Source: a virus (Duplodnaviria; Caudoviricetes). From it: a stretch of 56,571 nt of DNA. The first letter of the stretch is position 1, and each line of letters opens with the position of its first letter. The stretch lies in the IMG/VR virus record IMGVR_UViG_3300042914_004203, positions 1-56,571 of that record, one strand, 5' to 3'. Both the position numbers and the translations under genes were made by a program. Under the pieces are notes generated by a model that did not search any database, had not been told where the DNA came from, and saw only the letters and a program-made list of their open reading frames with translations. This document shows, in pieces, positions 35,410 through 46,395 of this stretch.

Positions 35410-35767
35410 TTTAAAAGCATATAGTAAAAAACACTTTATAGCAAAAATAGCCCAGCGGAAATTTTCACCTTTGAGGATATGTTATTGTATTGAATTTTAA
35501 TAGATTTCTAAAAAAGGGTAGGGGGTTATATAAGATAGATAACATAGTAATATAAGCTTAATATTAGCCTTTTCTTTGTATTATTTAAATAAGGTTTATA
35601 GCATAGATAAGAATAGATAGGATAAGATAAATAAGTAATATATTAAAATAGTGTGGAGATTGAAGATAGTACCCCCTCGACACATTTGCAACTCGCGTTC
35701 TTCTGATTTTTTCAAAAATGGGGTGGCCATATGCAAAATAAAAGGGGATAGGGTAGCCCCAAAGTCC

Positions 35768-35794
35768 TAAGTTGTTGATAATCAATGAAATTTA
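35768..35794. repeat. Palindromic element E1 (single dyad)
   Basis: TAAGTTGTTGA-TAA-TCAATGAAATTTA, 15 nt before a TTGCAG -35 box. Confidence 0.7.
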
Positions 35795-35843
35795 AATGCA
35801 AAAAAACCCTTGCAGAAATCCTATTCTGTGATAGATTAAGAGT

Positions 35844-36017
35844 ATGAAAGTTAAAGCAAACATCAAGTTCGACCTGAACGAAACCATCCGCAGACTCAAC
35901 GCTATCGCAGAAGGCTACAAAGCCTCTGCTCAACGCCTCGACAACATCGTGGCAGAAGCCCAAGCGAAGAAGGACGAAGCCCATCAGAAGTATATGGGTG
36001 AACCCATCATCAAATAA
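35844..36017 (+). CDS. Small coiled-coil protein (57 aa, not in the ORF track), paralogue of 37578-37723
   Basis: MKVKANIKFDLNETIRRLNAIAEGYKASAQRL...; preceded by TTGCAG-N16-TAGATT-N6-ATG. Confidence 0.75.
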   Translation: MKVKANIKFDLNETIRRLNAIAEGYKASAQRLDNIVAEAQAKKDEAHQKYMGEPIIK

Positions 36018-36058
36018 ATTACTTGACGAAAATCGAACCAAAGGACAAACTAGATCAT

Positions 36059-36478
36059 ATGAAAAACCAAATCACCATCACCAAACAACCCTTCGGCAAC
36101 ACTACCGCTTTCCTCTTGGAAGGCGATAAGAACCACATCGAGAATTTTCACAACGCTATGTATAACCATAGTGCAACCAATGGCGAGTTGCACGATATGG
36201 GCAACGGCAAGGCGTTCTACTTCTACGCACAACCCGAGGCTGTGCTGGAAGCGATGACCAAAGTGGCTCTCTATGCTCTATGCAATAAGATCAAAGCTAA
36301 AGGGATGAAGGGTGGACTTCTCGCCCTTGCAAAGCAGAAGGCACAAGACAAGTTCGATGCGATTAAGGATGGGCGATTCCTTCGCACCAGCATCAGCACC
36401 GATGTCTTTAACCTTGGAAGCATCACCGCAGAGAAGCCTAGCGACTACTGCGGAGCCATCAGCAGCGGGAGAGATTAA
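36059..36478 (+). CDS. Hypothetical protein, family A copy 1
   Basis: Start moved to ATG 36059 because the track's TTG start at 36023 is the -35 box; similar to 38678 and 42594. Confidence 0.75.
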   Translation: MKNQITITKQPFGNTTAFLLEGDKNHIENFHNAMYNHSATNGELHDMGNGKAFYFYAQPEAVLEAMTKVALYALCNKIKAKGMKGGLLALAKQKAQDKFDAIKDGRFLRTSISTDVFNLGSITAEKPSDYCGAISSGRD

Positions 36479-36855
36479 TGACCGCAGAGATTCTTGTTAT
36501 AGCTTTGACCATCCTAGGTGAAGCACGAGGCGAAGGCTTTGAGGGAATGGCGGGTGTTGCGTCTGTCATTCAGACACGAGCCATCGAGCGAAAGCAAACA
36601 CCTACACAAGTCTGCCTTGCACCAAAGCAGTTCAGCTTCTGGAATGGTGGAGTGAGTGAGGCAAAGAAGCAGGAGCTTCTAAAGAACCCACAAGCACCCA
36701 ACGCCATCCGTCTTGCTAAACTTGTAGCAGAGAAACGAATGCCCGATGTTGTGCAGGGAGCAAACCACTACCACACCTTCCAAGTGTCGCCTAAGTGGTC
36801 AAAGGGTGAGAAGCCCATAGCAGTCATTCAGAATCACAAGTTTTACCGTTTGTAA
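36478..36855 (+). CDS. Cell wall hydrolase, SleB/Hydrolase_2 family
   Basis: ALTILGEARGE, VASVI..R, QFSFWN, GANHYH and HKFY motifs. Confidence 0.85.
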   Translation: MTAEILVIALTILGEARGEGFEGMAGVASVIQTRAIERKQTPTQVCLAPKQFSFWNGGVSEAKKQELLKNPQAPNAIRLAKLVAEKRMPDVVQGANHYHTFQVSPKWSKGEKPIAVIQNHKFYRL

Positions 36856-36892
36856 GACTTGACAACAAAGAAAGGTATGATAAACTAAACAT

Positions 36893-37042
36893 ATGAATAA
36901 GACCATCAATAATGAAGAAGTAATCGAGTTAGCTAGCCGTCTAGTTAACATTATCAAAGAGCTAAACAATAACCGCTTCAGCAACACGGCTGGAGTTTAC
37001 CTTAACGAGTTGAGCGATCTACTCAAGACGAGGAGCATTTAA
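36893..37042 (+). CDS. Small hypothetical protein (49 aa, not in the ORF track)
   Basis: TTGACA-N16-TAAACT-N6-ATG; MNKTINNEEVIELASRL... Confidence 0.65.
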   Translation: MNKTINNEEVIELASRLVNIIKELNNNRFSNTAGVYLNELSDLLKTRSI

Positions 37043-37043
37043 C

Positions 37044-37424
37044 ATGATGGCGAGAGCAATACTCATTGACCCATTCACCGAAACAGTCTCACAGGTCACG
37101 CTTGTAGACACTAAACTTCAAACGCTAAAGAACCTCATCGAGTGCGAGATCATCACGATGACAGGTCTCGCTGATGGCGTGGACATGATTCTAGATGATG
37201 AAGGACTCTTGAAAGATTCAGAATCTCAAGCCTACTTCAAGTTCGGGATCGGTTCACAGCCTTTCGCTGGTAAAGCGTTGATCGTTGGAACAAACGACGA
37301 AGGCGAAACTGTTTCTGTCCCCGAAAATGTCACGACCGAAAAAGTTTTCGAGCGTGTGATCTTTTTCAAACCCTCAAAAAAATATCTCGAAGAATCTCTA
37401 GAAATAAAAGTGATGCCTTTTTAA
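37044..37424 (+). CDS. DUF3846-like protein
   Basis: AILIDP, DDEGLL and FAGKALIVG..DEGE motifs. Confidence 0.65.
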   Translation: MMARAILIDPFTETVSQVTLVDTKLQTLKNLIECEIITMTGLADGVDMILDDEGLLKDSESQAYFKFGIGSQPFAGKALIVGTNDEGETVSVPENVTTEKVFERVIFFKPSKKYLEESLEIKVMPF

Positions 37425-37434
37425 CCGCACTTCG

Positions 37435-37509
37435 TAAGTTGTTCAATACCAACGACTTACGCAGGGCGGGTCCCTTACGTTGTAACTCCTTGTCAATCAA
37501 CGAAATTTA
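37435..37509. repeat. Double-palindrome element E2
   Basis: Dyads at 37435-37459 and 37483-37509 with a 23-bp GC-rich spacer. Confidence 0.85.
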
Positions 37510-37577
37510 AATGAAGATTTTTCTTGCGAAAAATGAAAAATGTGATAGATTAAAGGTAGAAAGAAAGAAGAAAAAAA

Positions 37578-37723
37578 TGAAAACAAAAATCAAAATCAAA
37601 TTCGACATCAACGAAACAATCAAACGCCTTGAAGAAATTTCCAAAGGCTATCAAGAATCCGCAAAGCGGATGGAAAAAATCATCGTCAAAATGGACGAAA
37701 TCGAAACTCTTAAGAAAGGATAA
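37578..37723 (+). CDS. Small coiled-coil protein, paralogue of 35844-36017
   Basis: MKTKIKIKFDINETIKRLEEISKGYQESAKRM; TTGCGA-N16-TAGATT promoter upstream. Confidence 0.7.
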
Positions 37724-37727
37724 ATCG

Positions 37728-37931
37728 ATGAACATACAAATAAATCCAGAACTATACGAAAACAAAAACATCTGCCGATATGGTCACGACAAGTTGCTCG
37801 TGAAAATCTTCCCTTCCACTATCGGTTGGAAAACTAAAACCGCAACCGCTGAAATCCTCGAAGGAGAGGATAAGGGTAAGTGGACAACCATTTACCTTCG
37901 CAAAGGTTTGTATCCCGTTGATGCTCAATAA
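37728..37931 (+). CDS. Hypothetical protein
   Basis: ATG 4 nt after the previous stop, with AAAGGA upstream. Confidence 0.6.
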   Translation: MNIQINPELYENKNICRYGHDKLLVKIFPSTIGWKTKTATAEILEGEDKGKWTTIYLRKGLYPVDAQ

Positions 37932-37975
37932 GAAATAAAAGTTGACAAAATCAAAAAATCTGATAGGATAAAAGT

Positions 37976-38266
37976 ATGAAAGATAAGAACAAAACAATGC
38001 AACCCGAAATCGGAACCTTCTACCTCTTGACCTATGACAAGACCAAGACCCCTTGGCTTCCTAATGATGAAGTGCTTTTCGTTAAGGATAATGAAACCTT
38101 CATTAAAATCAGCATCAGTCAAGGTGCGGGATATAGCTCCCGATGGGATTGGGCAACCGAAAACGCTGTGACCATCACGAAGCTCGCAACGAATAAACAT
38201 CTCTTGGATCAACTCAACCTCTCGGTTGAAATTGGCAGAGACATCGCCAAAGCGGAAGGAGTCTAA
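37976..38266 (+). CDS. Hypothetical protein
   Basis: TTGACA-N16-TAGGAT-N6-ATG. Confidence 0.7.
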   Translation: MKDKNKTMQPEIGTFYLLTYDKTKTPWLPNDEVLFVKDNETFIKISISQGAGYSSRWDWATENAVTITKLATNKHLLDQLNLSVEIGRDIAKAEGV

Positions 38267-38269
38267 AAA

Positions 38270-38408
38270 GATGAAAAAAATTCTTTTCAAAATAAATAAA
38301 AAAACTTTTCGTCTCGCAGTTTCTCACGGCGAAAAGAAAAACTTTTTGCGTGAAAGATTTTTTTACTATGTTTCTGCGAGTTGCTTGAATCTACGAGACC
38401 TGTTATAA
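38270..38408 (+). CDS. Small basic hypothetical protein (approximate start)
   Basis: MKKILFKINKK... with GGAG upstream; the stop codon overlaps element E3. Confidence 0.4.
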
Positions 38409-38478
38409 GTCTCTAAGCATCAACGACTTACACGCGCAGGGAGGCGCTCTTTGTAAGTGCTTAATAATCAAGAACTTA
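38406..38478. repeat. Double-palindrome element E3
   Basis: Dyads at 38406-38430 and 38454-38478, 23-bp spacer. Confidence 0.85.
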
Positions 38479-38494
38479 TAAATCTTGATCTTTG

Positions 38495-38553
38495 ACCAAA
38501 ACCTGATGGAAGCGAAAAGATCGCAAACGATCTTAAACCAAAACCTGATGGAA
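38495..38553. repeat. 17-bp direct repeat between E3 and E4
   Basis: ACCAAAACCTGATGGAA at 38495-38511 and 38537-38553. Confidence 0.85.
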
Positions 38554-38564
38554 TGCAAAAAATC

Positions 38565-38637
38565 TAAATCTTTGAATATCAAATAGTTACATAAACAAGG
38601 CCCCCGCGCGCGCAAACCCTTGACTATCAACGACTTA
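38565..38637. repeat. Double-palindrome element E4
   Basis: Dyads at 38565-38589 and 38613-38637, 23-bp spacer; TTGACA follows 6 nt later. Confidence 0.8.
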
Positions 38638-38677
38638 CATCGCTTGACAATATATAAAAATCTGATATCCTCTTTTT

Positions 38678-39043
38678 ATGCAAAACAAAATAAGAATCTT
38701 TGCCGAACCTTTTGGCCCCAACCTCGCCTATTTGATTGAGGCAGATTTCGTATCTGCTGAAAGATTCTATAATGCTATTTATAATTTCGGCGGAACAAAT
38801 TACAAATTACAAGATCGTGGAAGCGGAAAAGCATTTTACTTTTATGCCGAACCAGCAAAGTTTCGCAGGGCTTTATCTCTCGCACTCGCCACGAATCTCG
38901 AATCATCTTTTGCTCAAGGCGATTGGAATTCTCACGCAGAAGCGTTGGCAGACCAAATAATTTCAGAAATAAAACCAGCAACTTTTGTAAGGCGTTGTCA
39001 TTCAATGGAATATTCTTATAGAAAATCTTTGACAGAATCATAA
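38678..39043 (+). CDS. Hypothetical protein, family A copy 2
   Basis: PFG, FYNAIYNFGGTN and GKAFYFYAEP match 36059; TTGACA-N16-TATCCT-N6-ATG. Confidence 0.75.
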   Translation: MQNKIRIFAEPFGPNLAYLIEADFVSAERFYNAIYNFGGTNYKLQDRGSGKAFYFYAEPAKFRRALSLALATNLESSFAQGDWNSHAEALADQIISEIKPATFVRRCHSMEYSYRKSLTES

Positions 39044-39062
39044 TCTGTGATACATTACCTAT

Positions 39063-39287
39063 ATGAACCAAAACGACATATCATATCTAGCCTCGATTAA
39101 CTGCACCGAAGCCTTTGCTGATGCGGAGGCGTTCTTCGACTACATCAACTCCCCTGATGTAATCAACGAAATGCTCAACAAGATGGCTCCCTGTTACGAT
39201 GAGAGGGATACCGAGGTCACCAACTTCTTCGGCGCGAAGGCTGTTCCTTTTCGCCTCACCTGTCAGAATGGAATGGAGGTCAAATAA
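39063..39287 (+). CDS. Hypothetical protein
   Basis: TTGACA-N16-TACATT-N6-ATG. Confidence 0.7.
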   Translation: MNQNDISYLASINCTEAFADAEAFFDYINSPDVINEMLNKMAPCYDERDTEVTNFFGAKAVPFRLTCQNGMEVK

Positions 39288-39288
39288 C

Positions 39289-39561
39289 ATGGACTACAAA
39301 GCCTCTCTCAAGGAGTGGATGAACCAGCATATGCTGACTCGGTTAGATGTGCGCGACATCCTTAACGAGATGACGCGTGATGACGAGCGCATCCTCGCAT
39401 CTTCTCAATCTAACCTCTCTGATGTAAATGAATCGATGGATGGTGACTTCGATTCTGCTATGGCCTCTGCTGGTCACGGAACCGATGAGGACTATGGTGG
39501 TGGATGCTACCAGATGGAAGACTTCGGTTGGGCTGGTGATCCAGAAATTTGTGGAGAATAA
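39289..39561 (+). CDS. Acidic hypothetical protein
   Basis: Start moved to ATG 39289 (GGAGG upstream); DGDFDSAMASAGHGTDEDYG motif. Confidence 0.65.
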   Translation: MDYKASLKEWMNQHMLTRLDVRDILNEMTRDDERILASSQSNLSDVNESMDGDFDSAMASAGHGTDEDYGGGCYQMEDFGWAGDPEICGE

Positions 39562-39562
39562 C

Positions 39563-39676
39563 ATGGAAAAATATATACTCGCAATCGCTGGGCTTGGGCT
39601 TTTCTTTGTTGCCCTCGCTCTATTAGAAACCCTTATCAACTTTGGCCTCTGGCTTTGGGAACATAAACGTAAGTAG
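39563..39676 (+). CDS. Small membrane protein
   Basis: MEKYILAIAGLGLFFVAL...; GGAG upstream; the stop codon overlaps element E5. Confidence 0.55.
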   Translation: MEKYILAIAGLGLFFVALALLETLINFGLWLWEHKRK

Positions 39677-39742
39677 TTAAGTATCAACGACTTACGGCGC
39701 GGGGGAGCGGCCTTGCGTAAGTCTTTAAGTATCAATAACTTA
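39670..39742. repeat. Double-palindrome element E5
   Basis: Dyads at 39670-39694 and 39718-39742, 23-bp spacer; near the point where plus- and minus-strand gene blocks converge. Confidence 0.85.
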
Positions 39743-39957
39743 CATTGAAGCTCGCCAACCTTCAAAAAATTCGTCTATCTCTCTTTCTTTTTGCAGAAAA
39801 GTTTTGTTTGAATCTAGAGGGGGATTATCGTTATCGCTCCACGGATAAAAAGTTTCAAGATTTTCGTTTAATAGTTTTTCGATGTTCATTTTGATATGAT
39901 AAAAGTTGTAATAATTCCTAGAATAATTAAAGCAATAAATGTTTCCATTGAGACATC

Positions 39958-40593
39958 TTAATGCTTTTTGTAGTTAATTGCAAACTCTGTTTTGTGCCAG
40001 CATGCACGACACGAACCGCACTTGTTCCCTTGTTTCGATGAAGGGCAATTAAATTCTCCCTTGTTGCTTGCACCGCTAACGCAGAGGCCAAGTCTCTCAG
40101 CCAATCCTACCGGTGCGGGGCCGTTCATCATAAGAGCAGATAAACGAATCGTAAGATTAAAAGGAACTTCACCGCCTTTTGCTATATACTCTGAAACGAA
40201 AGAGTATTCACGAGTAGGCAACCAAAAAGAAATATGCGGAAGGTTTTTAGCAATCTTAACAATCTTCTCAAGATGCCAAATGCCTTGCAAATCTCCCGAA
40301 TCGTGCCAACGGAAGTGAGGGTTGTTTGCTTTACCAATAAGGTAAGTCATCGCATCCACCCAAAGATCGTGAGTAAGAGAAGCGAAACGCTTTTCCATCG
40401 CCGCTTGAACATTAGGGAAAACATAACGCCCTTTAAGAGCATAGCAGAACGCGCAAATGCTTCCCGCAACTTGACGCATTTTTTGCCCGATGATGCAACG
40501 CTTTGCGGGCGTTGAATAAGCATACCCTGGCATCTTTGAAGGTTTAGATAGTGTGCCGACAATAGCTTCGGCTTGCTTTTTGTTTTTGAACAT
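39958..40593 (-). CDS. Gp88-like Cys-rich phage protein
   Basis: SKMPG, CAFCYA, FRWHDSGD, WLPTRE, IRLS and CxxCxxCW motifs; TTGTCA-N16-TAAAGT-N6-ATG. Confidence 0.75.
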   Translation of the reverse strand: MFKNKKQAEAIVGTLSKPSKMPGYAYSTPAKRCIIGQKMRQVAGSICAFCYALKGRYVFPNVQAAMEKRFASLTHDLWVDAMTYLIGKANNPHFRWHDSGDLQGIWHLEKIVKIAKNLPHISFWLPTREYSFVSEYIAKGGEVPFNLTIRLSALMMNGPAPVGLAERLGLCVSGASNKGEFNCPSSKQGNKCGSCRACWHKTEFAINYKKH

Positions 40594-40641
40594 AAAAATA
40601 CTTTATCAGTTTTTTTTCTTGTGACAAGTTTTTTCTGCAGT

Positions 40642-40716
40642 TAAATCTCGTTCAATATCAATGACTTACGCACGCAGGGACCCCGCTTCTGTAAGTGCTT
40701 GATAGTAAAAGACTTA
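40642..40716. repeat. Double-palindrome element E6
   Basis: Dyads at 40642-40668 and 40692-40716, 23-bp spacer; overlaps the tRNA-Glu 3' end. Confidence 0.85.
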
Positions 40717-40786
40717 GGGCTAAACGGATTCGAACCGATACACCCTCATTGAAAGCGAGGAGTCCTAACCATTAGACGATAGCCCC
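40715..40786 (-). tRNA. tRNA-Glu(TTC)
   Basis: Acceptor GGGGCTA/TAGCCCT, anticodon arm CCTCG-CTTTCAA-TGAGG, GGTTCGAATCC T-arm; CCA not encoded. Confidence 0.9.
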
Positions 40787-40876
40787 AAAATATAGTATTT
40801 AACTTATTATATTAGGTATTTTTGTATTTATCAATTACTATTTGCTATTTTGTGTAATCTACTTTAGAATTTAGAT

Positions 40877-41059
40877 ATGAACTCAAAAGTCAGCGGTATA
40901 CTAGAAAACTCTGCATTATATAAACAATTCCTCAAAGAACGAGAAGAGATATTAAAACACAAGTGGATTGAAAGCGAGAAAGCTGGCCACGACGTAGGAT
41001 TTGAATGGGCTTTGCTTGATTGGAATTTTAATTATAGAAATGGTTGGAAAAATAAATAA
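40877..41059 (+). CDS. DUF4032-like small protein
   Basis: EREEILKHKWIESEKAGHDVGFEWALLDW; plus-strand GTGTAA at 40852-40857. Confidence 0.7.
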   Translation: MNSKVSGILENSALYKQFLKEREEILKHKWIESEKAGHDVGFEWALLDWNFNYRNGWKNK

Positions 41060-41186
41060 TTCTTCCGCTCTCTCTGCTCTAGAATCAGAGAAAATATATA
41101 CCCACCTTTAATTGCCTCAGACTCTGGGCATTGGGGCTTCAATGGCTTTATGGAGGAAGTCATACTCACTCATTGCGGAAAGAACT
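41058..41186 (-). ncRNA. Candidate ~130-nt structured small RNA
   Basis: TTGCAC-N16-TAAGAT promoter with no ATG at +1; ends pair (AGUUCUUUCCGC/GCGGAAGAAUU) and enclose three hairpins. Confidence 0.5.
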
Positions 41187-41274
41187 TTAGTTATCTTAAC
41201 ATAGTTTAATTTTAGTGCAATAAAAAAGGCAAGATTTTTTAGGTCTCGCCCTTTCTATAAATATCTCTCTGTTG

Positions 41275-41535
41275 TTAAACTGGCGAGAGACCTCCAGCAA
41301 TTCTGTCATAACGGAACTGACGATGTCCAAATCCGTCACGACCAGAGAAGCACCAAGAAATGAAAAGTTTGTTTCCAGTCTTAGATACATAACGAGTGGT
41401 AGGAACGCCAACGATGTAAGTATAAACCTCGGTTCCATTGTAAGGCTTATAGTTGATGATATACCGCTGTCCTAAAATAAAATAGAACAGACCCTTAATC
41501 ATCTCCCAATAGGTGATGTTGTTTTGTTTCTTCAT
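41275..41535 (-). CDS. Hypothetical protein
   Basis: TTGCAG-N16-TATGAT-N6-ATG; ends with RQFRYDRI, resembling the WYL-domain RxFRxDRI motif. Confidence 0.65.
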   Translation of the reverse strand: MKKQNNITYWEMIKGLFYFILGQRYIINYKPYNGTEVYTYIVGVPTTRYVSKTGNKLFISWCFSGRDGFGHRQFRYDRIAGGLSPV

Positions 41536-41573
41536 TTAATAATCATACCATAATTTGTTTTCTCTGCAAGAAA

Positions 41574-41648
41574 TAAATCTCGTTGTCCATCAACGACTTA
41601 CGCGGCGAGAGTCCCCGCCGATGTAACTACTTAATAATCAACAACTTA
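41574..41648. repeat. Double-palindrome element E7
   Basis: Dyads at 41574-41600 and 41624-41648, 23-bp spacer. Confidence 0.85.
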
Positions 41649-41659
41649 CAAAAGTTAAG

Positions 41660-41821
41660 TTATTCTTCTGATTCTTTCCAATTTGGATGCGCTTTAGCCC
41701 ACTTAACGAAAACAACTTCCAACTCTGCTAAATATTTCTCTATTTGAGCAATGAGTTTAGGATCTTCATCTTTAAGAACTCTTTTCTCTAGGATCTTGCT
41801 GATTCTATTCTCATGCTTCAT
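41660..41821 (-). CDS. Small hypothetical protein (53 aa, not in the ORF track)
   Basis: MKHENRISKILEKRVLKDEDP...; ends 11 nt before E7. Confidence 0.5.
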   Translation of the reverse strand: MKHENRISKILEKRVLKDEDPKLIAQIEKYLAELEVVFVKWAKAHPNWKESEE

Positions 41822-42048
41822 ATATATTATTTTACAGTGCTATGAGAAATATTTCAATTATTATTTTCGATATGAATGATTTTTGGGAAAAATTATTTTA
41901 GATGTGTAATTATAATTTTCGAAACCTCTATCCAAAGTCCCCACGATATACTTCCACAAATCATAAAAAGAAAAATCCACCAAAAATTTCTTTCAAACCA
42001 TCTCACATAAAAGTCTTACAGGTAAAAAAATCTTTTGGGAAAAATTCT

Positions 42049-42122
42049 CGCTTTCAGCAGGGATTGAACCTGCAACCTACGGATTAGAAATCCGTTGCTC
42101 TATCCAATTGAGCTATGAAAGC
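42049..42122 (-). tRNA. tRNA-Arg(TCT)
   Basis: Acceptor GCTTTCA/TGAAAGC, anticodon arm ACGGA-TTTCTAA-TCCGT. Confidence 0.9.
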
Positions 42123-42124
42123 GA

Positions 42125-42200
42125 TGGTCGCCTAGGTCAGACTCGAACTGACACTATAACGATTTTAAGTCGTTTGCCTCTGCCATTGGGCTACTAGGCG
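42125..42200 (-). tRNA. tRNA-Leu(TAA) with a short variable loop
   Basis: Acceptor CGCCTAG/CTAGGCG plus ACCA, anticodon arm AACGA-CTTAAAA-TCGTT, 5-nt variable region. Confidence 0.85.
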
Positions 42201-42207
42201 AATCTTT

Positions 42208-42594
42208 TTAGCTGTCAGTATCTAACTTTTCAGCCGAAACTTGTCCGAGAGCATAGGTAGGCTCAACCTGTGCTGTGCGAACAAAGAACTCGCTAGGAAT
42301 CTTGTTGATCGTATTCTTCACACGATTCAACACAACTTCTTTTAGTCCGCCCTTGGAACCACGAAACTTTTTACCAAGTTTATCTGTGATACCATTCATA
42401 ACATACTTAAACATTACTCGCTCTAGCTTATCCATAGTAATCCAAAAATAAGCAAAATCCTCGCTCATCCATTTAAGCTCACCATTTGTTCCGCCCCAAT
42501 TATAGATGCGGTTATGAAACTGCTCTATGTCTGTGGGTTTTCCTTTAATACCAATTACCCAATGTGCTCCAAGATTTTGTTTAACGAGTTGCAT
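42208..42594 (-). CDS. Hypothetical protein, family A copy 3
   Basis: IEQFHNRIYNWGGTNGEL, KGGL and LGQVSAEK match 36059. Confidence 0.75.
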   Translation of the reverse strand: MQLVKQNLGAHWVIGIKGKPTDIEQFHNRIYNWGGTNGELKWMSEDFAYFWITMDKLERVMFKYVMNGITDKLGKKFRGSKGGLKEVVLNRVKNTINKIPSEFFVRTAQVEPTYALGQVSAEKLDTDS

Positions 42595-42748
42595 CTTTTT
42601 TCTCCTTTTGTTTTTCTGCTCTTGCTTTGAAGTATGCCTTAATATCTTCTTCTGTCAATTCTGTATGTTTTGCATAGCCATTAAGCATCCAATGATAAGT
42701 GGGTGCAACAAGGTGGCTATCCTTAATAATGTCATAAGTTTGTTTCAT
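42581..42748 (-). CDS. Small hypothetical protein (55 aa, not in the ORF track)
   Basis: TTGACA-N16-TAAACT-N7-ATG; MKQTYDIIKDSHL... Confidence 0.65.
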   Translation of the reverse strand: MKQTYDIIKDSHLVAPTYHWMLNGYAKHTELTEEDIKAYFKARAEKQKEKKDATR

Positions 42749-42803
42749 TGTTTTTAGTTTAACAGGGTTTACTTTTTTGTCAAGGATTTTTGTAAAGTTT
42801 TTT

Positions 42804-42875
42804 TGGATCGTGTAGGACTCGAACCTACAACCAATTGGTTAAAAGCCAACTGCTCTACCATTGAGCTAACGATCC
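42804..42875 (-). tRNA. tRNA-Lys(TTT)
   Basis: Acceptor GGATCGT/ACGATCC, anticodon arm GTTGG-CTTTTAA-CCAAT. Confidence 0.9.
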
Positions 42876-42883
42876 GAAAATCT

Positions 42884-42956
42884 TGGGCGCACAAGGACTT
42901 GAACCTTGGACCAAGGGATTATGAGTCCCCTGCTCTGACCACTGAGCTATACGCCC
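42884..42956 (-). tRNA. tRNA with CAT anticodon, probably Ile2 (lysidine type); elongator Met not excluded
   Basis: Acceptor GGGCGTA/TGCGCCC, anticodon arm GGGGA-CTCATAA-TCCCT; body resembles bacterial tRNA-Ile2. Confidence 0.85.
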
Positions 42957-42962
42957 AATAAA

Positions 42963-43190
42963 TTAAGCGGCTGAAATCTCCGTTGGAAATTCGCTAGGCT
43001 CTGGAACGAGCTTGAACGCCACATTAAAAGCCTTGCTAATCCTATAAAGATCCTGCAAGCTGTATGTGTTCTGTTTGGTTGCTTCACGGATTCGAGCGTC
43101 CATAATGTAAGCCCTGCGCTCACCAAAGATCACTCTGGTATAGTAAGGAGTCCACTTAGGAGCTTCCCAGTTTGAGGTTTTGTTTGTCAT
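42963..43190 (-). CDS. Hypothetical protein
   Basis: Start moved to ATG 43190 to fit TTGACT-N16-TATATT-N6-ATG. Confidence 0.65.
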   Translation of the reverse strand: MTNKTSNWEAPKWTPYYTRVIFGERRAYIMDARIREATKQNTYSLQDLYRISKAFNVAFKLVPEPSEFPTEISAA

Positions 43191-43230
43191 AGGTTTAATA
43201 TACAATAGTTTGATAAATAGTCAACAAAAA

Positions 43231-43255
43231 TAATCTGTTGAACATCAAAGACTTA
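43231..43255. repeat. Palindromic element E8 (single dyad)
   Basis: TAATCTGTTGA-ACA-TCAAAGACTTA, directly abutting the CCA of the tRNA at 43256. Confidence 0.75.
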
Positions 43256-43349
43256 TGGTACGAGGGGAAGGATTCGAACCTTCATTTTGCTCAAATCTAG
43301 AGCGACCAGAGTATAAGTCTGGGGTCTTAACCAGTTAGACGACCCTCGC
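43256..43349 (-). tRNA. tRNA with TAT anticodon (nominally Ile) and a long variable arm
   Basis: Acceptor GCGAGGG/CCCTCGT plus ACCA, anticodon arm CCAGA-CTTATAC-TCTGG, ~22-nt variable region with a GCTC/GAGC stem, T-arm GAAGG-TTCGAAT-CCTTC. Confidence 0.85.
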
Positions 43350-43385
43350 ATCACCTAGCCCGTAGCTAGTATCGGCCTCCGAACT

Positions 43386-43556
43386 TTAAGCTCTCTTTTC
43401 AGAGCCAATCTTTTTAATCACGACCTTCGTGCCATCAGGCCACGCACGGATGACCTTCTTCCAAAAGTCAGCTTCTGCTTCAGCTTCTTTTAGGTCTGTG
43501 TGCATATCCTCGCTAACACGAATGCCATCACGCAAAACGATATATCTTACATTCAT
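43386..43556 (-). CDS. Small hypothetical protein (56 aa, not in the ORF track)
   Basis: MNVRYIVLRDGIRVSED...; ATGA overlap with the upstream gene and a GGAGG SD. Confidence 0.6.
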   Translation of the reverse strand: MNVRYIVLRDGIRVSEDMHTDLKEAEAEADFWKKVIRAWPDGTKVVIKKIGSEKRA

Positions 43557-43783
43557 TCTTCTACCTCCACGGCGATTTCATTGTCAAATAGTGAGCCACC
43601 ATCAACCTTGTCGCAGATCACGATGTCATTACTGCCATCATCACCAGCATACACGGCACGAAGTTTCTTTACTTGACTATATTCTTTTTTAGTCCATTGA
43701 CTCTCTGGAACGCCGAGGACTTGCAGAGCCTCAACTCTCTCTGGAGGGATCGCCTCACCACTTACTGCACACTTATGGGTCAT
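43553..43783 (-). CDS. Hypothetical protein with a weak TraR/DksA-like segment
   Basis: Start moved to ATG 43783 (TTGACA-N16-TACAAT-N7-ATG); CAVSGEAIPPERVEAL resembles the DksA/TraR C-terminus but lacks the four cysteines. Confidence 0.6.
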   Translation of the reverse strand: MTHKCAVSGEAIPPERVEALQVLGVPESQWTKKEYSQVKKLRAVYAGDDGSNDIVICDKVDGGSLFDNEIAVEVEE

Positions 43784-43814
43784 AGTTGTGATTGTAATAT
43801 GTTTTGTTATTCTG

Positions 43815-44174
43815 TCAAGCGATTTTACGAGGACGACCACGCCCACGCTTCTCACCACTAGGCAGAATTGATGTTGCATTATAGTTTGTTAGTTTCTCCT
43901 GCAATTCATTGAAACGCTTGTTTGCATCTTCAATGCTAGTGCAAGTGAAAGCCCAATCACCCCATTGACTATCGCTAGGATACATTTCAGCGGGAGGCAT
44001 CTTGACTCCTGCAATCTCGTATCCGTTGTGACGCTTAATAGCTACGACTTCATAATGATGATTGTCGCTTTCGGGGTCATCGAGTTGCTTTTTGTAGATG
44101 GCAATATCGCCATCACGCTTTACCTGCTGAAGTTTGAATCCTTTTGAAGTAAAAGATTCTTCAAGAATTTTCAA
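43815..44174 (-). CDS. Hypothetical protein with a C-terminal AT-hook
   Basis: Ends KRGRGRPRKIA; probable TTG start at 44174 overlapping the upstream gene. Confidence 0.6.
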   Translation of the reverse strand: MKILEESFTSKGFKLQQVKRDGDIAIYKKQLDDPESDNHHYEVVAIKRHNGYEIAGVKMPPAEMYPSDSQWGDWAFTCTSIEDANKRFNELQEKLTNYNATSILPSGEKRGRGRPRKIA

Positions 44175-44316
44175 TTTTAGTTCCCGCTGGAAGCCAGTTT
44201 TTGGGGTCAAGGTTTTCCCCAATATAACCAACTTGGGTTTCGGTTTTAGTTTTCGGGTCAGTAGCGTAAATAGCCCAGCCACCTTCAGCGAGCTTCTTTA
44301 CTTTAGTGATGTTCAT
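44161..44316 (-). CDS. Small hypothetical protein (51 aa, not in the ORF track)
   Basis: TTGAAT...TATAAT-N6-ATG; MNITKVKKLAEGGWAIY... Confidence 0.6.
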   Translation of the reverse strand: MNITKVKKLAEGGWAIYATDPKTKTETQVGYIGENLDPKNWLPAGTKIENS

Positions 44317-44341
44317 ATGATAATTATAATATACTTTTAGA

Positions 44342-44680
44342 TTAATTCAAGACAAAAATTTCACGACCAATAACACCAGCCCATTTAGCCTTATATACAG
44401 GACGCTTGGTATCAGCATAAACAAAACTCTTATACTTATAGGGATTATATGTTACTTGCCGTTCTCCGTGAATAGGCCAACCTTCGTCTGGTGTGCCACA
44501 CACAAAGGCGTGGACATTCTTACGCTTTTCTTTTAAGACTCGGTTTCTGCCAGCTTGACTCACCCTAAAATCAACATCTTTAAGAAAGAACTCTGAACTA
44601 TGTTGTAGGACTTTGCCTTTAAGCATAATACTTAAACAATGTTTATGTAGGTTATAGTAGACTTTATGTTTTGCTTTCAC
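44342..44680 (-). CDS. Conserved hypothetical phage protein
   Basis: VYYNLHK, RVLKEKRKNVHAFV and VTYNPYK motifs; TTGACA-N16-TATAGT-N7-GTG. Confidence 0.75.
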   Translation of the reverse strand: MKAKHKVYYNLHKHCLSIMLKGKVLQHSSEFFLKDVDFRVSQAGRNRVLKEKRKNVHAFVCGTPDEGWPIHGERQVTYNPYKYKSFVYADTKRPVYKAKWAGVIGREIFVLN

Positions 44681-44721
44681 TAGCTTAACTATAAGATAAA
44701 TTCTATAAATGTCAAGGTTTA

Positions 44722-44794
44722 TAAGTGCTTGATAGTCAACGACTTACAGCAGCGGGGTCCCGCGCGGCGTAAGTGCTTGATGCTCAACAACTTG
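44722..44794. repeat. Double-palindrome element E9
   Basis: Dyads at 44722-44746 and 44770-44794, 23-bp spacer. Confidence 0.85.
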
Positions 44795-44813
44795 CAACTT
44801 ATCGAATTTCGAC

Positions 44814-44845
44814 AAAAAAGAAGCGGGGGATTTACCCCCGCCTCT
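44814..44845 (-). terminator. Intrinsic terminator after the DUF932 gene
   Basis: GCGGGGG/CCCCCGC stem followed by a U-tract on the minus strand. Confidence 0.8.
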
Positions 44846-44864
44846 GTTAAGGTTTCGCTTTAGT

Positions 44865-45722
44865 TTAGGCGACCAGTTTCAAGAGGTCTTCGTCACGAGT
44901 CTTGCCGCTGAAGACTTTGAGCAGGTCACGGTTGACGCGCTCGCTGTACTCATAACGCTCTTGCGAGACATTGCGAGTCAGGAACTGAGTTGCCGCATTA
45001 TAAAGGTTATACAGATTGCGATCTGTATCCTCCTCATAAGCGGGATTGCGCCAAACAGCCTCGATGCCCTCGCGCACCTTGCCGGAGATAATGTCTTTCT
45101 CTTCCAGCTTGGTGAGCAGGTTCAAGCCCTGTTCGTTAGTGAGAGCTCTCTGCGCTAGTTTGTTGAAAACTTGCGCCGAGGATTCCACGCTGTCGCAAGC
45201 ATGAGCCAATGCATCACCAACGAAGTCGAGATTGACAGCAAGCGTGTGACGCTTGGTCATGCTGAACTCCTTGGTAAGCGAGGTCATACCGTTCTCACAG
45301 ACGAGACGAAGGAAGCCTAGGGATAACGAAACACGAGTTGAGCGGTCATAACTATTGTTAACGACCAGCCGCAATCCGAGAATGTCACCCTTGGCTCGCT
45401 TGCCCACGGGCTTCAATTCCGTTTTGAAATCGGTGAAGTCGTAGGAAGCGTAGAAACGAGCACCGTCACGCACGACGAACTTCTTCGAGGTAAAATTCGA
45501 GAGTTTGTCATGATTGGCGAGGTTGGTTTCCACCATCTCGATGAGGTCTGCATTTTTCACCACACCATACTGCTCGGTGCAAACTCCGAGTGTAATGGGT
45601 TCGGCGGTGTCACGGCGCACCATGCCGAAGTATCCTGTCCTCTTGCCGTCAGTTGTGAGGAGTGGCTCTTGGTGTACATCAAAATCGTATACACTTTGAG
45701 CGGGTTTGGTTTGTCTTGCCAT
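44865..45722 (-). CDS. DUF932-family protein
   Basis: LGV...YGVVKN, NSYDRS, RLVCENG, RHT and LYNLYNAAT motifs; TTGTCA-N16-TATGAT-N6-ATG. Confidence 0.8.
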   Translation of the reverse strand: MARQTKPAQSVYDFDVHQEPLLTTDGKRTGYFGMVRRDTAEPITLGVCTEQYGVVKNADLIEMVETNLANHDKLSNFTSKKFVVRDGARFYASYDFTDFKTELKPVGKRAKGDILGLRLVVNNSYDRSTRVSLSLGFLRLVCENGMTSLTKEFSMTKRHTLAVNLDFVGDALAHACDSVESSAQVFNKLAQRALTNEQGLNLLTKLEEKDIISGKVREGIEAVWRNPAYEEDTDRNLYNLYNAATQFLTRNVSQERYEYSERVNRDLLKVFSGKTRDEDLLKLVA

Positions 45723-45830
45723 AAGATAATCATACCATACTTTTAACTTGTGACAAGAACTTTTTTCATATCATAAGATACTGACCTCTAGGGTGTTAGG
45801 TATCCTGTCAAAAATAAATGCTATCATACA

Positions 45831-45903
45831 TAACCCCTTGAATATCAACGACTTGCACGCGCGGGGGGCGCGCCCACGTAACTATATAATAATCAAGTAC
45901 TTA
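45831..45903. repeat. Double-palindrome element E10
   Basis: Dyads at 45831-45855 and 45879-45903, 23-bp spacer; the last 3 nt are the stop codon of 45901-46395. Confidence 0.8.
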
Positions 45904-46395
45904 TGTCAAACTAAATTTAATATTACTCTTTCTATATTCTCTTACCTTACGCATAGCATATAATGTAGCATCTACTTCACTTAAACTAGCTTTAGTACCC
46001 ATATTATATTTACGAATCTTTTTAATACCATGAAAGAACTTCTTTTTCCTTTGCATCTCTCCATTATTACATTCCCATTTAGTATTCTTATACTGCCAAA
46101 TATGCCTTAATTCATGAGCAACTAGATCAATTAATGATTCTTCCCAGCTATATGTTTTAACAGGTAAATATCCTCTCTCACCGCCACTAATATAAGGCTT
46201 AATATACTTGGTATATTTAGGCACACCAATATGTGCTCTCATACTCACACTCCAAGCCCTACCATGAAAGCTATACTTGGTATTACCAAAGTCTATCTTC
46301 TGAACATCTTTAAGGTGCAATCCTTGGGGCAAGCACCACTTAACAATTTCTTTTAATTTATCTGAACAATAGTTGGTTGTATTAATGAGCTTCAT
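45901..46395 (-). CDS. HExxH metallopeptidase-like protein
   Basis: LVAHELRHIWQ with a downstream EVDA; TTGACA-N16-TATTAT promoter. Confidence 0.65.
   Translation of the reverse strand: MKLINTTNYCSDKLKEIVKWCLPQGLHLKDVQKIDFGNTKYSFHGRAWSVSMRAHIGVPKYTKYIKPYISGGERGYLPVKTYSWEESLIDLVAHELRHIWQYKNTKWECNNGEMQRKKKFFHGIKKIRKYNMGTKASLSEVDATLYAMRKVREYRKSNIKFSLT

Follow-up and report, generated by a model that had tools for sequence, protein, structure and literature searches.

Paired palindromes around a GC-rich core mark cassette borders in a gene island of an uncultured phage and resemble sites for an IHF-type protein

The IMG/VR viral record IMGVR_UViG_3300042914_004203 (Duplodnaviria; Caudoviricetes), the whole of which forms the window analyzed here (56.5 kb; estimated completeness 36%), carries a repeated intergenic element confined to a 10-kb island of small genes. 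The island is labeled an early region on the inference drawn from its GC content, small genes, tRNAs, Pfam families, and promoters. Each complete element is a module of about 75 bp in which two mirror-oriented 27-bp palindromes (dyads), with centers 48 bp apart, enclose a 21-bp GC-rich core. The elements are cassette borders, though not demonstrably favored over other intergenic points. The explanation that we prefer, at a confidence that is evenly balanced, is that they would serve as protein-bound boundary or upstream-promoter modules on double-stranded DNA, in which sites of the integration host factor (IHF) type clamp the GC core, and would double as homology for recombination. That their reader is a DNABII protein of the host seems possible, at a confidence somewhat short of even.

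The original prediction described a 25-bp dyad that occurs 18 times within 10 kb and nowhere else in the window. With a half-site matrix built from relatives and a dyad threshold of at least 14 bits, all 18 copies were recovered and none was found elsewhere, a weak copy at 37910-37936 being the only addition; the resulting 19 dyads in 56.5 kb all lie within 35767-45904, against about 0.14 in each shuffled sequence. The 25-bp pattern itself, at up to three mismatches, gives 15 matches against 0.13 expected (no more than one in any of 100 shuffles), all at 35768-45903. The eight pairs with an invariant 23-bp spacer were likewise confirmed, every one of them having its dyads exactly 48 bp apart (starts at 37434/37482, 38405/38453, 38564/38612, 39669/39717, 40643/40691, 41575/41623, 44721/44769, and 45830/45878), and the two single dyads are at 35768 and 43231, as had been said. 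The spacers are GC-rich in AT-rich surroundings (70-91% GC over 23 nt, versus 29-41% in the 100-bp flanks). They do start with C and end with G, but both bases are the 12th base of a palindrome arm (GTAAGT...ACTTAC). The true dyad is a 27-mer composed of GTAAGTcGTTGA, three bases (tWa), and TCAACgACTTAC, with the spacer's C and G as outermost arm positions. Inner half-sites, on the core side, outscore outer ones (mean 14.3 versus 11.3 bits), and the copy at 38564 is mirrored. All 19 dyads are intergenic or overlap stop codons only, and all are inside the 10-kb island; the overlaps reported at 38406-38408, 39674-39676, and 45901-45903 are correct, as are the four longer promoter-facing arms, which have the variant TCAAYGARATTTA at 35768, 37483, 40642, and 41574. 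The modules (E1 to E8) and single dyads are the following.

35767..35794: single dyad with the long promoter-facing arm TCAATGAAATTTA; the -35 box TTGCAG at 35810 is 15 nt off and the leaderless ATG is at 35844
37434..37509: E1, made up of dyad 37434-37460, GC core 37461-37481, and long-arm dyad 37482-37509; the -35 box TTGCGA at 37524 is 14 nt off
37910..37936: weak single dyad (14.1 bits), overlapping the end of gene 37728-37931 and 5 nt before the -35 box TTGACA at 37942
38405..38479: E2, its first three bases forming the stop codon of gene 38271-38408; core GCAGGG in register
38564..38638: E3, mirrored, 84 bp past E2 (an "empty cassette"); right dyad 5 nt before the -35 box TTGACA at 38644
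39669..39743: E4, at the convergent junction of the plus- and minus-strand gene blocks; contains the stop codon of gene 39563-39676; no adjacent promoter
40642..40717: E5, with a long left arm, 14 nt from the -35 box TTGTCA (40627-40622, minus strand); right dyad overlaps the 3' end of tRNA-Glu
41574..41649: E6, with a long left arm, 4 nt from the -35 box TTGCAG (41569-41564, minus strand)
43230..43256: single dyad abutting the 3' end of tRNA-Ile, 5 nt from the -35 box TTGACT (43224-43219, minus strand)
44721..44795: E7, left dyad 5 nt from the -35 box TTGACA (44715-44710, minus strand)
45830..45904: E8, right dyad contains the stop codon of gene 45901-46395 (minus strand)

A scan of IMG/VR with one arm followed by any 21 bases and GTAA returned 93 stretches. 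By the matrix, 54 of these loci carry at least one 48-bp pair at syntenic places, and a further 36, with at most one dyad, resemble chance or coding matches. Among adjacent dyads 42-50 bp apart in the 93 loci, 180 of 206 are at exactly 48 bp, a proportion partly forced by the search pattern; the pattern selected no more than one or two pairs per locus, and L029 holds eight such pairs, L017 seven, and the complete 172-kb relative G001 nine. In G001 (CheckV-complete), 21 of the 22 dyads stand at 124.7-136.4 kb, within one 12-kb island of higher GC content. After cores with less than 60% GC or cut by a locus end had been dropped, 45 distinct elements were aligned with the eight of the window; their TAA, TT, TCAA, and TTA columns are near-invariant, and the length of the core never changes among copies. 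Over 42 comparisons of orthologous elements, to which E5 contributed none past the filter, identity is 84% and 80% in the dyads, 77% and 79% in the flanks, and 69% in the core, the core of E6 being identical across L006, L012, and L067. A hexamer, GCAGGG or its mirror CCCTGC with at most one mismatch, occupies one fixed register in 105 of the 156 distinct 48-bp elements of the window and its relatives (GCAGGG at columns 32-37 and CCCTGC at columns 39-44, with 58 and 60 matches against no more than 14 at any shift). The sequence within the fixed geometry had been called variable, which is right in that the core evolves faster than the flanks (69% versus 77-79%) but wrong in that its length and GC content are kept and a positioned hexamer is present in two thirds of the copies.

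The evidence favors protein sites on double-stranded DNA over hairpins in RNA or DNA, because the elements show no covariation and their cores fold barely better than shuffles. The RNAalifold consensus of the elements reaches only -0.17 kcal/mol with no compensatory pairs, and when helices are forced on the palindromes, the paired fraction of cells is 77.8%, versus 76.8% in shuffles, again without covariation, so the dyad symmetry reflects two conserved half-sites rather than pairing within each copy. Over the 156 distinct elements, the 21-nt cores have a mean hairpin z-score of -0.36; single-copy folds range from +0.12 to -3.81 with inconsistent structures. No Rfam family matches any element, neither RNAalifold nor the comparison of pairing with shuffles found a covarying single-strand structure of the attC kind, and no core in the window is followed by a U-run. 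The copies keep one DNA orientation regardless of which strand is transcribed, and among 12 palindromes in the window with at least 10 of 12 arm pairs, a single one is a dyad. Of ten terminator-like matches in the region, a single one meets an element, within the left dyad of E6, and no core is among them. Near E7 there is a terminator of the ordinary kind.

44819..44845, minus strand: classical intrinsic terminator, 11-bp stem and T-run, after gene 44865-45722 and before E7 in the direction of transcription

Since this separate terminator precedes E7, the element there is not simply the terminator. The proposal that fixed geometry betrays the site of a multimeric protein receives support: conservation of both half-sites, absence of covariation, and rigid spacing fit a dimeric protein on double-stranded DNA.

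The arms themselves point to a family of such proteins. The IHF consensus is quoted as TAAnnnnTTGATW / WATCAAnnnnTTR (PMC10380432), and it is matched by both the left arm, TAA-nnnn-TTGA(T)(W), and the right arm, (W)ATCAA-nnnn-TTA; the near-invariant dyad columns (A3, T10, C17, A18, A19, T24, and T25) coincide with positions of this consensus. In Table 2 of another paper, WATCAANNNNTTR appears as the H-NS site and TCGATAAATT as the IHF site, apparently by a swap (PMC6907758). The window contains 22 exact copies of WATCAANNNNTTR, where 9.2 +/- 3.0 are expected; 12 of the 22 are inside dyads, and 12 of the 19 dyads contain an exact match. The TT and AA steps of TTGA-nnn-TCAA are separated by 9 bp, the distance between the two proline-induced kinks that IHF and HU introduce into bound DNA.

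The dyads also keep particular distances to promoters. Sigma-70-type promoters of the island (TTGACA-like, 16-nt spacer, often TGn, TAnnnT) give 37 promoter-like matches, against 23.7 +/- 5.9 expected, and include the following set.

36859..45756 (span): ten sigma-70-type promoters, with the start codon 6-7 nt after the -10 hexamer in 10 of 10

With start codons this close to the -10 hexamer, the first genes of the early units are leaderless. By eye, the promoter at 35810 fits the leaderless pattern; the one at 37524 has a 28-nt leader. Most elements had been placed 3-15 nt before a -35 box, which holds only in part: at 8 of the 11 sites a promoter lies 4-15 nt beyond a dyad, and E2, E4, and E8 have none. 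In the 27-mer frame, the distance is 5 nt for four dyads (37910 and 38612 on the plus strand, 43230 and 44721 on the minus strand), which places the dyad center near -54, and for the long-arm copies it is 14-15 nt in three cases and 4 nt in one. Among 790 distinct dyad orientations in relatives, distances to the -35 box peak at 5-6 nt (39), 15-16 nt (9), and 26-27 nt (6), with the partner dyad, 48 bp further out, at 53-56 (31) and 63-66 (12); the steps between peaks are about one helical turn.

Neither the palindrome nor its pairing is restricted to this viral lineage. A further 75 IMG/VR loci are marked by the perfect palindrome, only three of which share at least three island genes with the window, and these loci pair their dyads at lineage-specific distances of 41/42, 50/51, 53, or 58 bp around lineage-specific GC cores (58 bp in L200, L210, L197, and others; 41/42 in L207 and L214; 50 in L209; 53 in L238). 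A clearly selected core hairpin exists in the 58-bp class only (z -2.79), in the form GACCCC-tetraloop-GGGGTC with UNCG/GNRA-like loops such as TTCG, TACG, and GAAG. In bacteria, the perfect palindrome TAAGTnGTTGAnnnTCAACnACTTA was found in 47 stretches of genomes and metagenome-assembled genomes (MAGs) from several phyla. Many of these are orthologous, including some 20 Chitinophagales copies of one tRNA-flanking site and four Fibrobacter copies of one locus; the number of independent bacterial loci is estimated at about 20, only moderately above chance among hairpins. Counts within single genomes weigh more: at up to three mismatches, an Akkermansia MAG (G005) has 19 sites against none for a reversed control, and a Fibrobacter MAG has four against none. 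Most bacterial copies extend to GTAAGT...ACTTAC, further than the search pattern required. They stand 14-30 nt past tRNA genes in four lineages, with one upstream of argS in Akkermansia, and no gene common to the palindrome loci across phyla was found, only orthologous loci within a genus. The carrier bacteria have two to five DNABII genes, some of which score best against IHF-subunit models, below the curated cut-offs. A conserved cellular reader of the palindrome is plausible on these sequence grounds.

Several bacterial arrangements deserve separate record. The motif GCATT-N4-AATGC stands beside 9 of the 19 Akkermansia sites, with one further partial copy; about half of the sites in this MAG (L150-L168) have a second palindrome, ACAGCATT-N4-AATGCTGT, at a distance of 8-10 nt, an arrangement that resembles a composite intergenic repeat or a regulon site not yet described. 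On a Pedosphaera chromosome (L110, 6550-6700), two dyads 76 bp apart accompany three direct GTTACGC repeats, and the same dyad variant recurs at no fewer than four loci of that genome, three of them as 76-bp pairs. An 11.9-kb contig binned with an Enterobacterales MAG (L115) carries eleven dyads in pairs 42 bp apart and is probably a phage contig of the 42-bp class misplaced in a bacterial bin. An integrase att site in Bacteroidota was considered and dropped, the palindrome in L113 having a TyrRS gene, a tRNA gene, and a methyltransferase gene beside it and no integrase.

That the elements border promoter-plus-gene units, as had been proposed, is upheld by relatives that differ by whole cassettes beside them. 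Gene order was compared in 30 of the 93 loci, G001, and the window. The right half of the island (genes 18-30) keeps one order throughout, and its elements stay in place. In the left half, the cassettes between elements differ: some loci have gene 7, some lack it, and in some it is set apart by elements; after one element, gene 12 occurs in some loci only; the gene-3 unit changes position; and tandem element pairs are common. L029, L017, G001, and others carry an inserted stretch of 0.5-1.2 kb at E5, flanked by elements on both sides. In L081, 41561-43259 is missing, the deletion reaching from 13 bp ahead of E6 to 3 bp past the 43231 dyad, and the E2-E3 doublet of the window is a single element. 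Breakpoints were taken from all loci as the ends of high-scoring segment pairs of at least 200 bp and at least 75% identity, ends near locus ends being dropped. By this measure, 17 of 49 distinct breakpoints are within 15 bp of an element, in a region of which such positions make up 9.9% (p 2e-6). Several cassette events stop instead at a promoter or gene border that has no element. Among contigs from four lake metagenomes that map to the island, 15 joints were found, 4 of them tRNA-related. Six of the 11 non-tRNA joints have ends in elements, with sides of 20-35 nt (20-40 nt over all 11), short enough that related strains are a possible source; a back-joint from 38589 to 37497, with 35-nt sides, recurs in two of the four runs. 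These joints are mosaic junctions at elements, too weak to prove recombination or circular forms.

Paralogous small genes of two families (35844-36017 and 37577-37723; 36059-36478, 38678-39043, and 42208-42594) sit at or near cassette heads, and since they are paralogues within one island, units must have been duplicated. Pfam, PHROGs, and the ESM Atlas gave no family or function for either. The record belongs to a phage without a close cultured relative. It encodes virion proteins, a BspA-type leucine-rich-repeat protein, and a terminase that reaches at best 28% identity by tblastn to any of 50,697 phage records, too little to name a cultured relative or a host; with the island as megablast query, those records yielded tRNA matches only, and blastn of one element gave three short matches, all spurious. 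The island was found in 24 lake-water metagenome runs. GC content is 38-44% at 35.8-45.9 kb and mostly 26-37% in the rest of the window, and the small genes of the island run on the plus strand to 39.7 kb and then on the minus strand. Six of the eight tRNA genes of the window are inside it, all reading A/U-ending codons.

40714..43349, minus strand: six tRNA genes (Glu, Arg, Leu, Lys, Met, and Ile)

The early genes may suit the tRNA pool of a host with higher GC content until the phage tRNAs appear. Pfam and PHROGs searches of 30 island proteins gave Hydrolase_2, DUF3846, GP88, DUF932, and L5 gp82 and otherwise weak hints only, and the ESM Atlas gave nothing useful for two of them; these Pfam families (the hydrolase being SleB-type) are known from actinophages and from plasmid leading regions. 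The minus-strand protein 43815-44282 ends in an AT-hook-like GRGRPRK (Pfam E 0.099 only), and its minus-strand neighbor 43553-43783 has a weak TraR/DksA-type zinc-finger match (E 0.019); both are conserved among relatives.

Searches of the literature on PeSLs, palindromic IHF sites, Bacteroides IHF-like host factors, and early-promoter intergenic repeats, the PeSL supplementary sequence lists excepted, turned up no description of such an element. The closest described system is that of the PeSL cassettes, composite promoter plus stem-loop motifs of T4-type phages that mediate modular shuffling (Arbiol et al., 2010, PMC2839356; Comeau et al., 2014, PMC4122927). The PeSL stem-loop was shown to terminate transcription, and PeSL insertions and deletions are ascribed to general homologous recombination (PMC2839356; PMC4122927). 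The likeness extends to repeated composite intergenic motifs of about 100 bp amid small non-essential early genes, strong sigma-70-type promoters, a GC element of a G-run and a C-run, transcriptionally self-contained cassettes, and relatives with insertions, deletions, or replacements beside the motifs. Unlike PeSLs, the present elements have flanking 27-bp palindromes and a fixed 48-bp geometry, a core that in this lineage does not look like a stem-loop or terminator (z -0.36, no consensus structure, no U-run), and a promoter beside only some copies; unlike the PeSL phages, this phage is without a close cultured relative (terminase at most 28% identical over the 50,697 records).

Architectural IHF sites are found upstream of lambda pL and Mu Pe, in attP, and in CRISPR leaders. 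The present arms share with them the match to WATCAAnnnnTTR and a place upstream of promoters at helically phased distances, and the bacterial palindrome copies, like accessory bending sites, stand beside other repeated motifs. Classical IHF sites, however, are asymmetric and single, whereas these are palindromic, paired, and mirror-oriented and clamp a GC core, conserve additional positions, and belong to a phage without a DNABII gene; the likeness is one of sequence. The enterobacterial REP/BIME repeats, including the IHF-binding RIP, are extragenic composites, located where transcription units end, in which GC-rich palindromes are joined to an IHF site. Here the order is inverted, with two IHF-like sites flanking one GC core, and the elements are phage-borne, number about ten in one island, and lack a GTAG-tagged REP hairpin. 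In the large lytic Bacillus phage SPO1, the homodimeric DNABII protein TF1 has preferred sites at early promoters of the host-takeover region. TF1 is phage-encoded and requires hydroxymethyluracil DNA; in the present clade, searches of four genomes (G000-G003, one complete and three partial) with PF00216 detected no DNABII gene.

It follows from this last result that a DNABII binder would be the host's, and the absence of such a gene from the four genomes is itself one of several observations that count against an IHF-type module. Positions outside the IHF consensus are conserved as well (G5, T6, and C20 G21 A22 C23), hinting at a more specific reader, and the case for IHF draws on a consensus match together with general structural knowledge of IHF complexes. 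A dyad accompanies only about half of the approximately 15 island promoters, and E4 and E2 have no adjacent promoter. The fixed distance between dyad and promoter derives from about three or four independent promoter contexts, since orthologues are included in the counts, and common descent of duplicated modules could account for it. No single geometry is universal, as spacings of 41/42, 50/51, 53, and 58 bp are not helical multiples. In a Pedosphaera genome, 10 sites face 7 for the reversed control, which renders that count uninformative. When breakpoints are restricted to intergenic ones, 16 of 35 are at elements against a background of 32.6% (p 0.07), so that enrichment is no longer demonstrable.

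Operators of a dimeric regulator encoded by the phage, with a dimer on each dyad and perhaps a tetramer across the core, could instead switch the early units off (or on) together after host take-over. We think this unlikely, although the sites are restricted to the early island, adjoin or lie near -35 boxes, conserve bases beyond the IHF consensus, and have the rigid pair geometry known from co-operative repressors, and although a binder could hide among the island proteins, most of which are without a known family. A lineage-specific regulator does not predict that the same extended palindrome should be multi-copy in bacterial chromosomes (19 versus 0 in the Akkermansia MAG) or spread over many phage lineages unrelated to this one (of 75 further loci, only 3 share at least three early genes with the window), and no helix-turn-helix or other DNA-binding family was found in the island bar the weak AT-hook (E 0.099) and the weak TraR-type zinc finger (E 0.019). 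Alternatively, stem-loops of the PeSL type might act in RNA or single-stranded DNA to terminate, attenuate, or stabilize early transcripts or to process tRNA precursors. Elements that come directly after stop codons, two dyads that abut tRNA 3' ends, TTTT after the core in some relatives, the strongly selected hairpin of the 58-bp lineages (z -2.79), and cores with G-runs followed by C-runs, as in the PeSL stem-loops (PMC2839356), all agree with such a role. It is nevertheless improbable for the lineage of the window, in which the core is barely more foldable than shuffles (z -0.36) and has no U-run behind it, the elements show no covariation, a separate classical terminator stands before E7, orientation is constant whichever strand is transcribed, and only 1 of the 12 strong palindromes is a dyad.

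The original prediction named as possibilities a recombination site, integron-like in logic, and a regulatory, partition, or injection-control site. Dedicated site-specific recombination, integron-like or invertase-like, that moves promoter-plus-gene cassettes would account for cassette presence and absence, tandem empty elements, element-flanked inserts, and the 6 of 11 non-tRNA joints that end in elements. It is very improbable, and the integron-like proposal is not supported: G000-G003 contain no tyrosine (PF00589) or serine (PF00239) recombinase, breakpoints are not demonstrably enriched over the intergenic background and many fall at promoters or gene borders without an element, the joint sides are only 20-35 nt and may stem from related strains, and the right half of the island does not change its gene order. 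A role as partition, packaging, replication-origin, or injection-stop sites is likewise very improbable. Palindromes clustered in one region of a large genome would suit them, and IHF-type sites accompany functions of the partition, packaging, and origin type in other systems. No ParB (PF02195) was found in G000-G003, which leaves the partition proposal unsupported, and the eight to ten copies are spread between genes, each at the border of a transcription unit; no observation puts the island at a genome end, and in G001 it is internal to the assembled record, which leaves the physical ends unsettled.

The protein-bound boundary module would work as follows. An IHF- or HU-type dimer, most likely the host's, would bend the DNA sharply at each dyad, and the GC core would stay rigid or accommodate a further factor. 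The promoter-proximal dyad keeps helical phase with the -35 box, at 5 bp or roughly one turn beyond that. Because it is found at borders of early units and in register with -35 boxes, the module could act as upstream architecture, as an insulator, or as both, for strong leaderless promoters of the host RNA polymerase. General homologous recombination between the repeated modules of about 75 bp (and between promoters) would yield gain, loss, and duplication of cassettes, and since the modules are repeated, a dedicated recombinase would be unnecessary. The sequences themselves establish the anatomy and its conservation, the missing covariation, the agreement with the IHF consensus, the placement by genes and promoters, and the variation in cassettes; reader, bending, transcriptional effect, and recombination route are what we infer. 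A bolder generalization, speculative and in our view rather doubtful, is that paired dyads are a widespread device, as yet undescribed, shared by many unrelated lineages of uncultured phages. Two U-turns induced by host DNABII proteins would clamp a lineage-specific GC core (spacing 41/42, 48, 50/51, 53, or 58 bp) into a nucleoprotein knot that gives topological insulation to adjacent early units, organizes their promoters, and is the favored point of cassette exchange.

If the generalization is true, the exchanged cassettes would carry anti-defense and host-takeover genes in a system that depends on a host factor and needs no recombinase of its own. Should the reading as a protein-bound module hold, a large and diverse group of uncultured phages would order their first-expressed genes by means of a shared cis-element that borrows a universal DNA-bending protein of the host. 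Such an element would provide a handle for spotting early and anti-defense islands in metagenomic phage genomes, a testable model for the insulation of strong neighboring promoters in AT-rich phage DNA, and a concrete substrate by which early genes are exchanged as modules. In addition, because Akkermansia, Fibrobacter, and other bacteria carry the palindrome in many copies, an unstudied class of bacterial sites is indicated, one that is approachable in culturable species.

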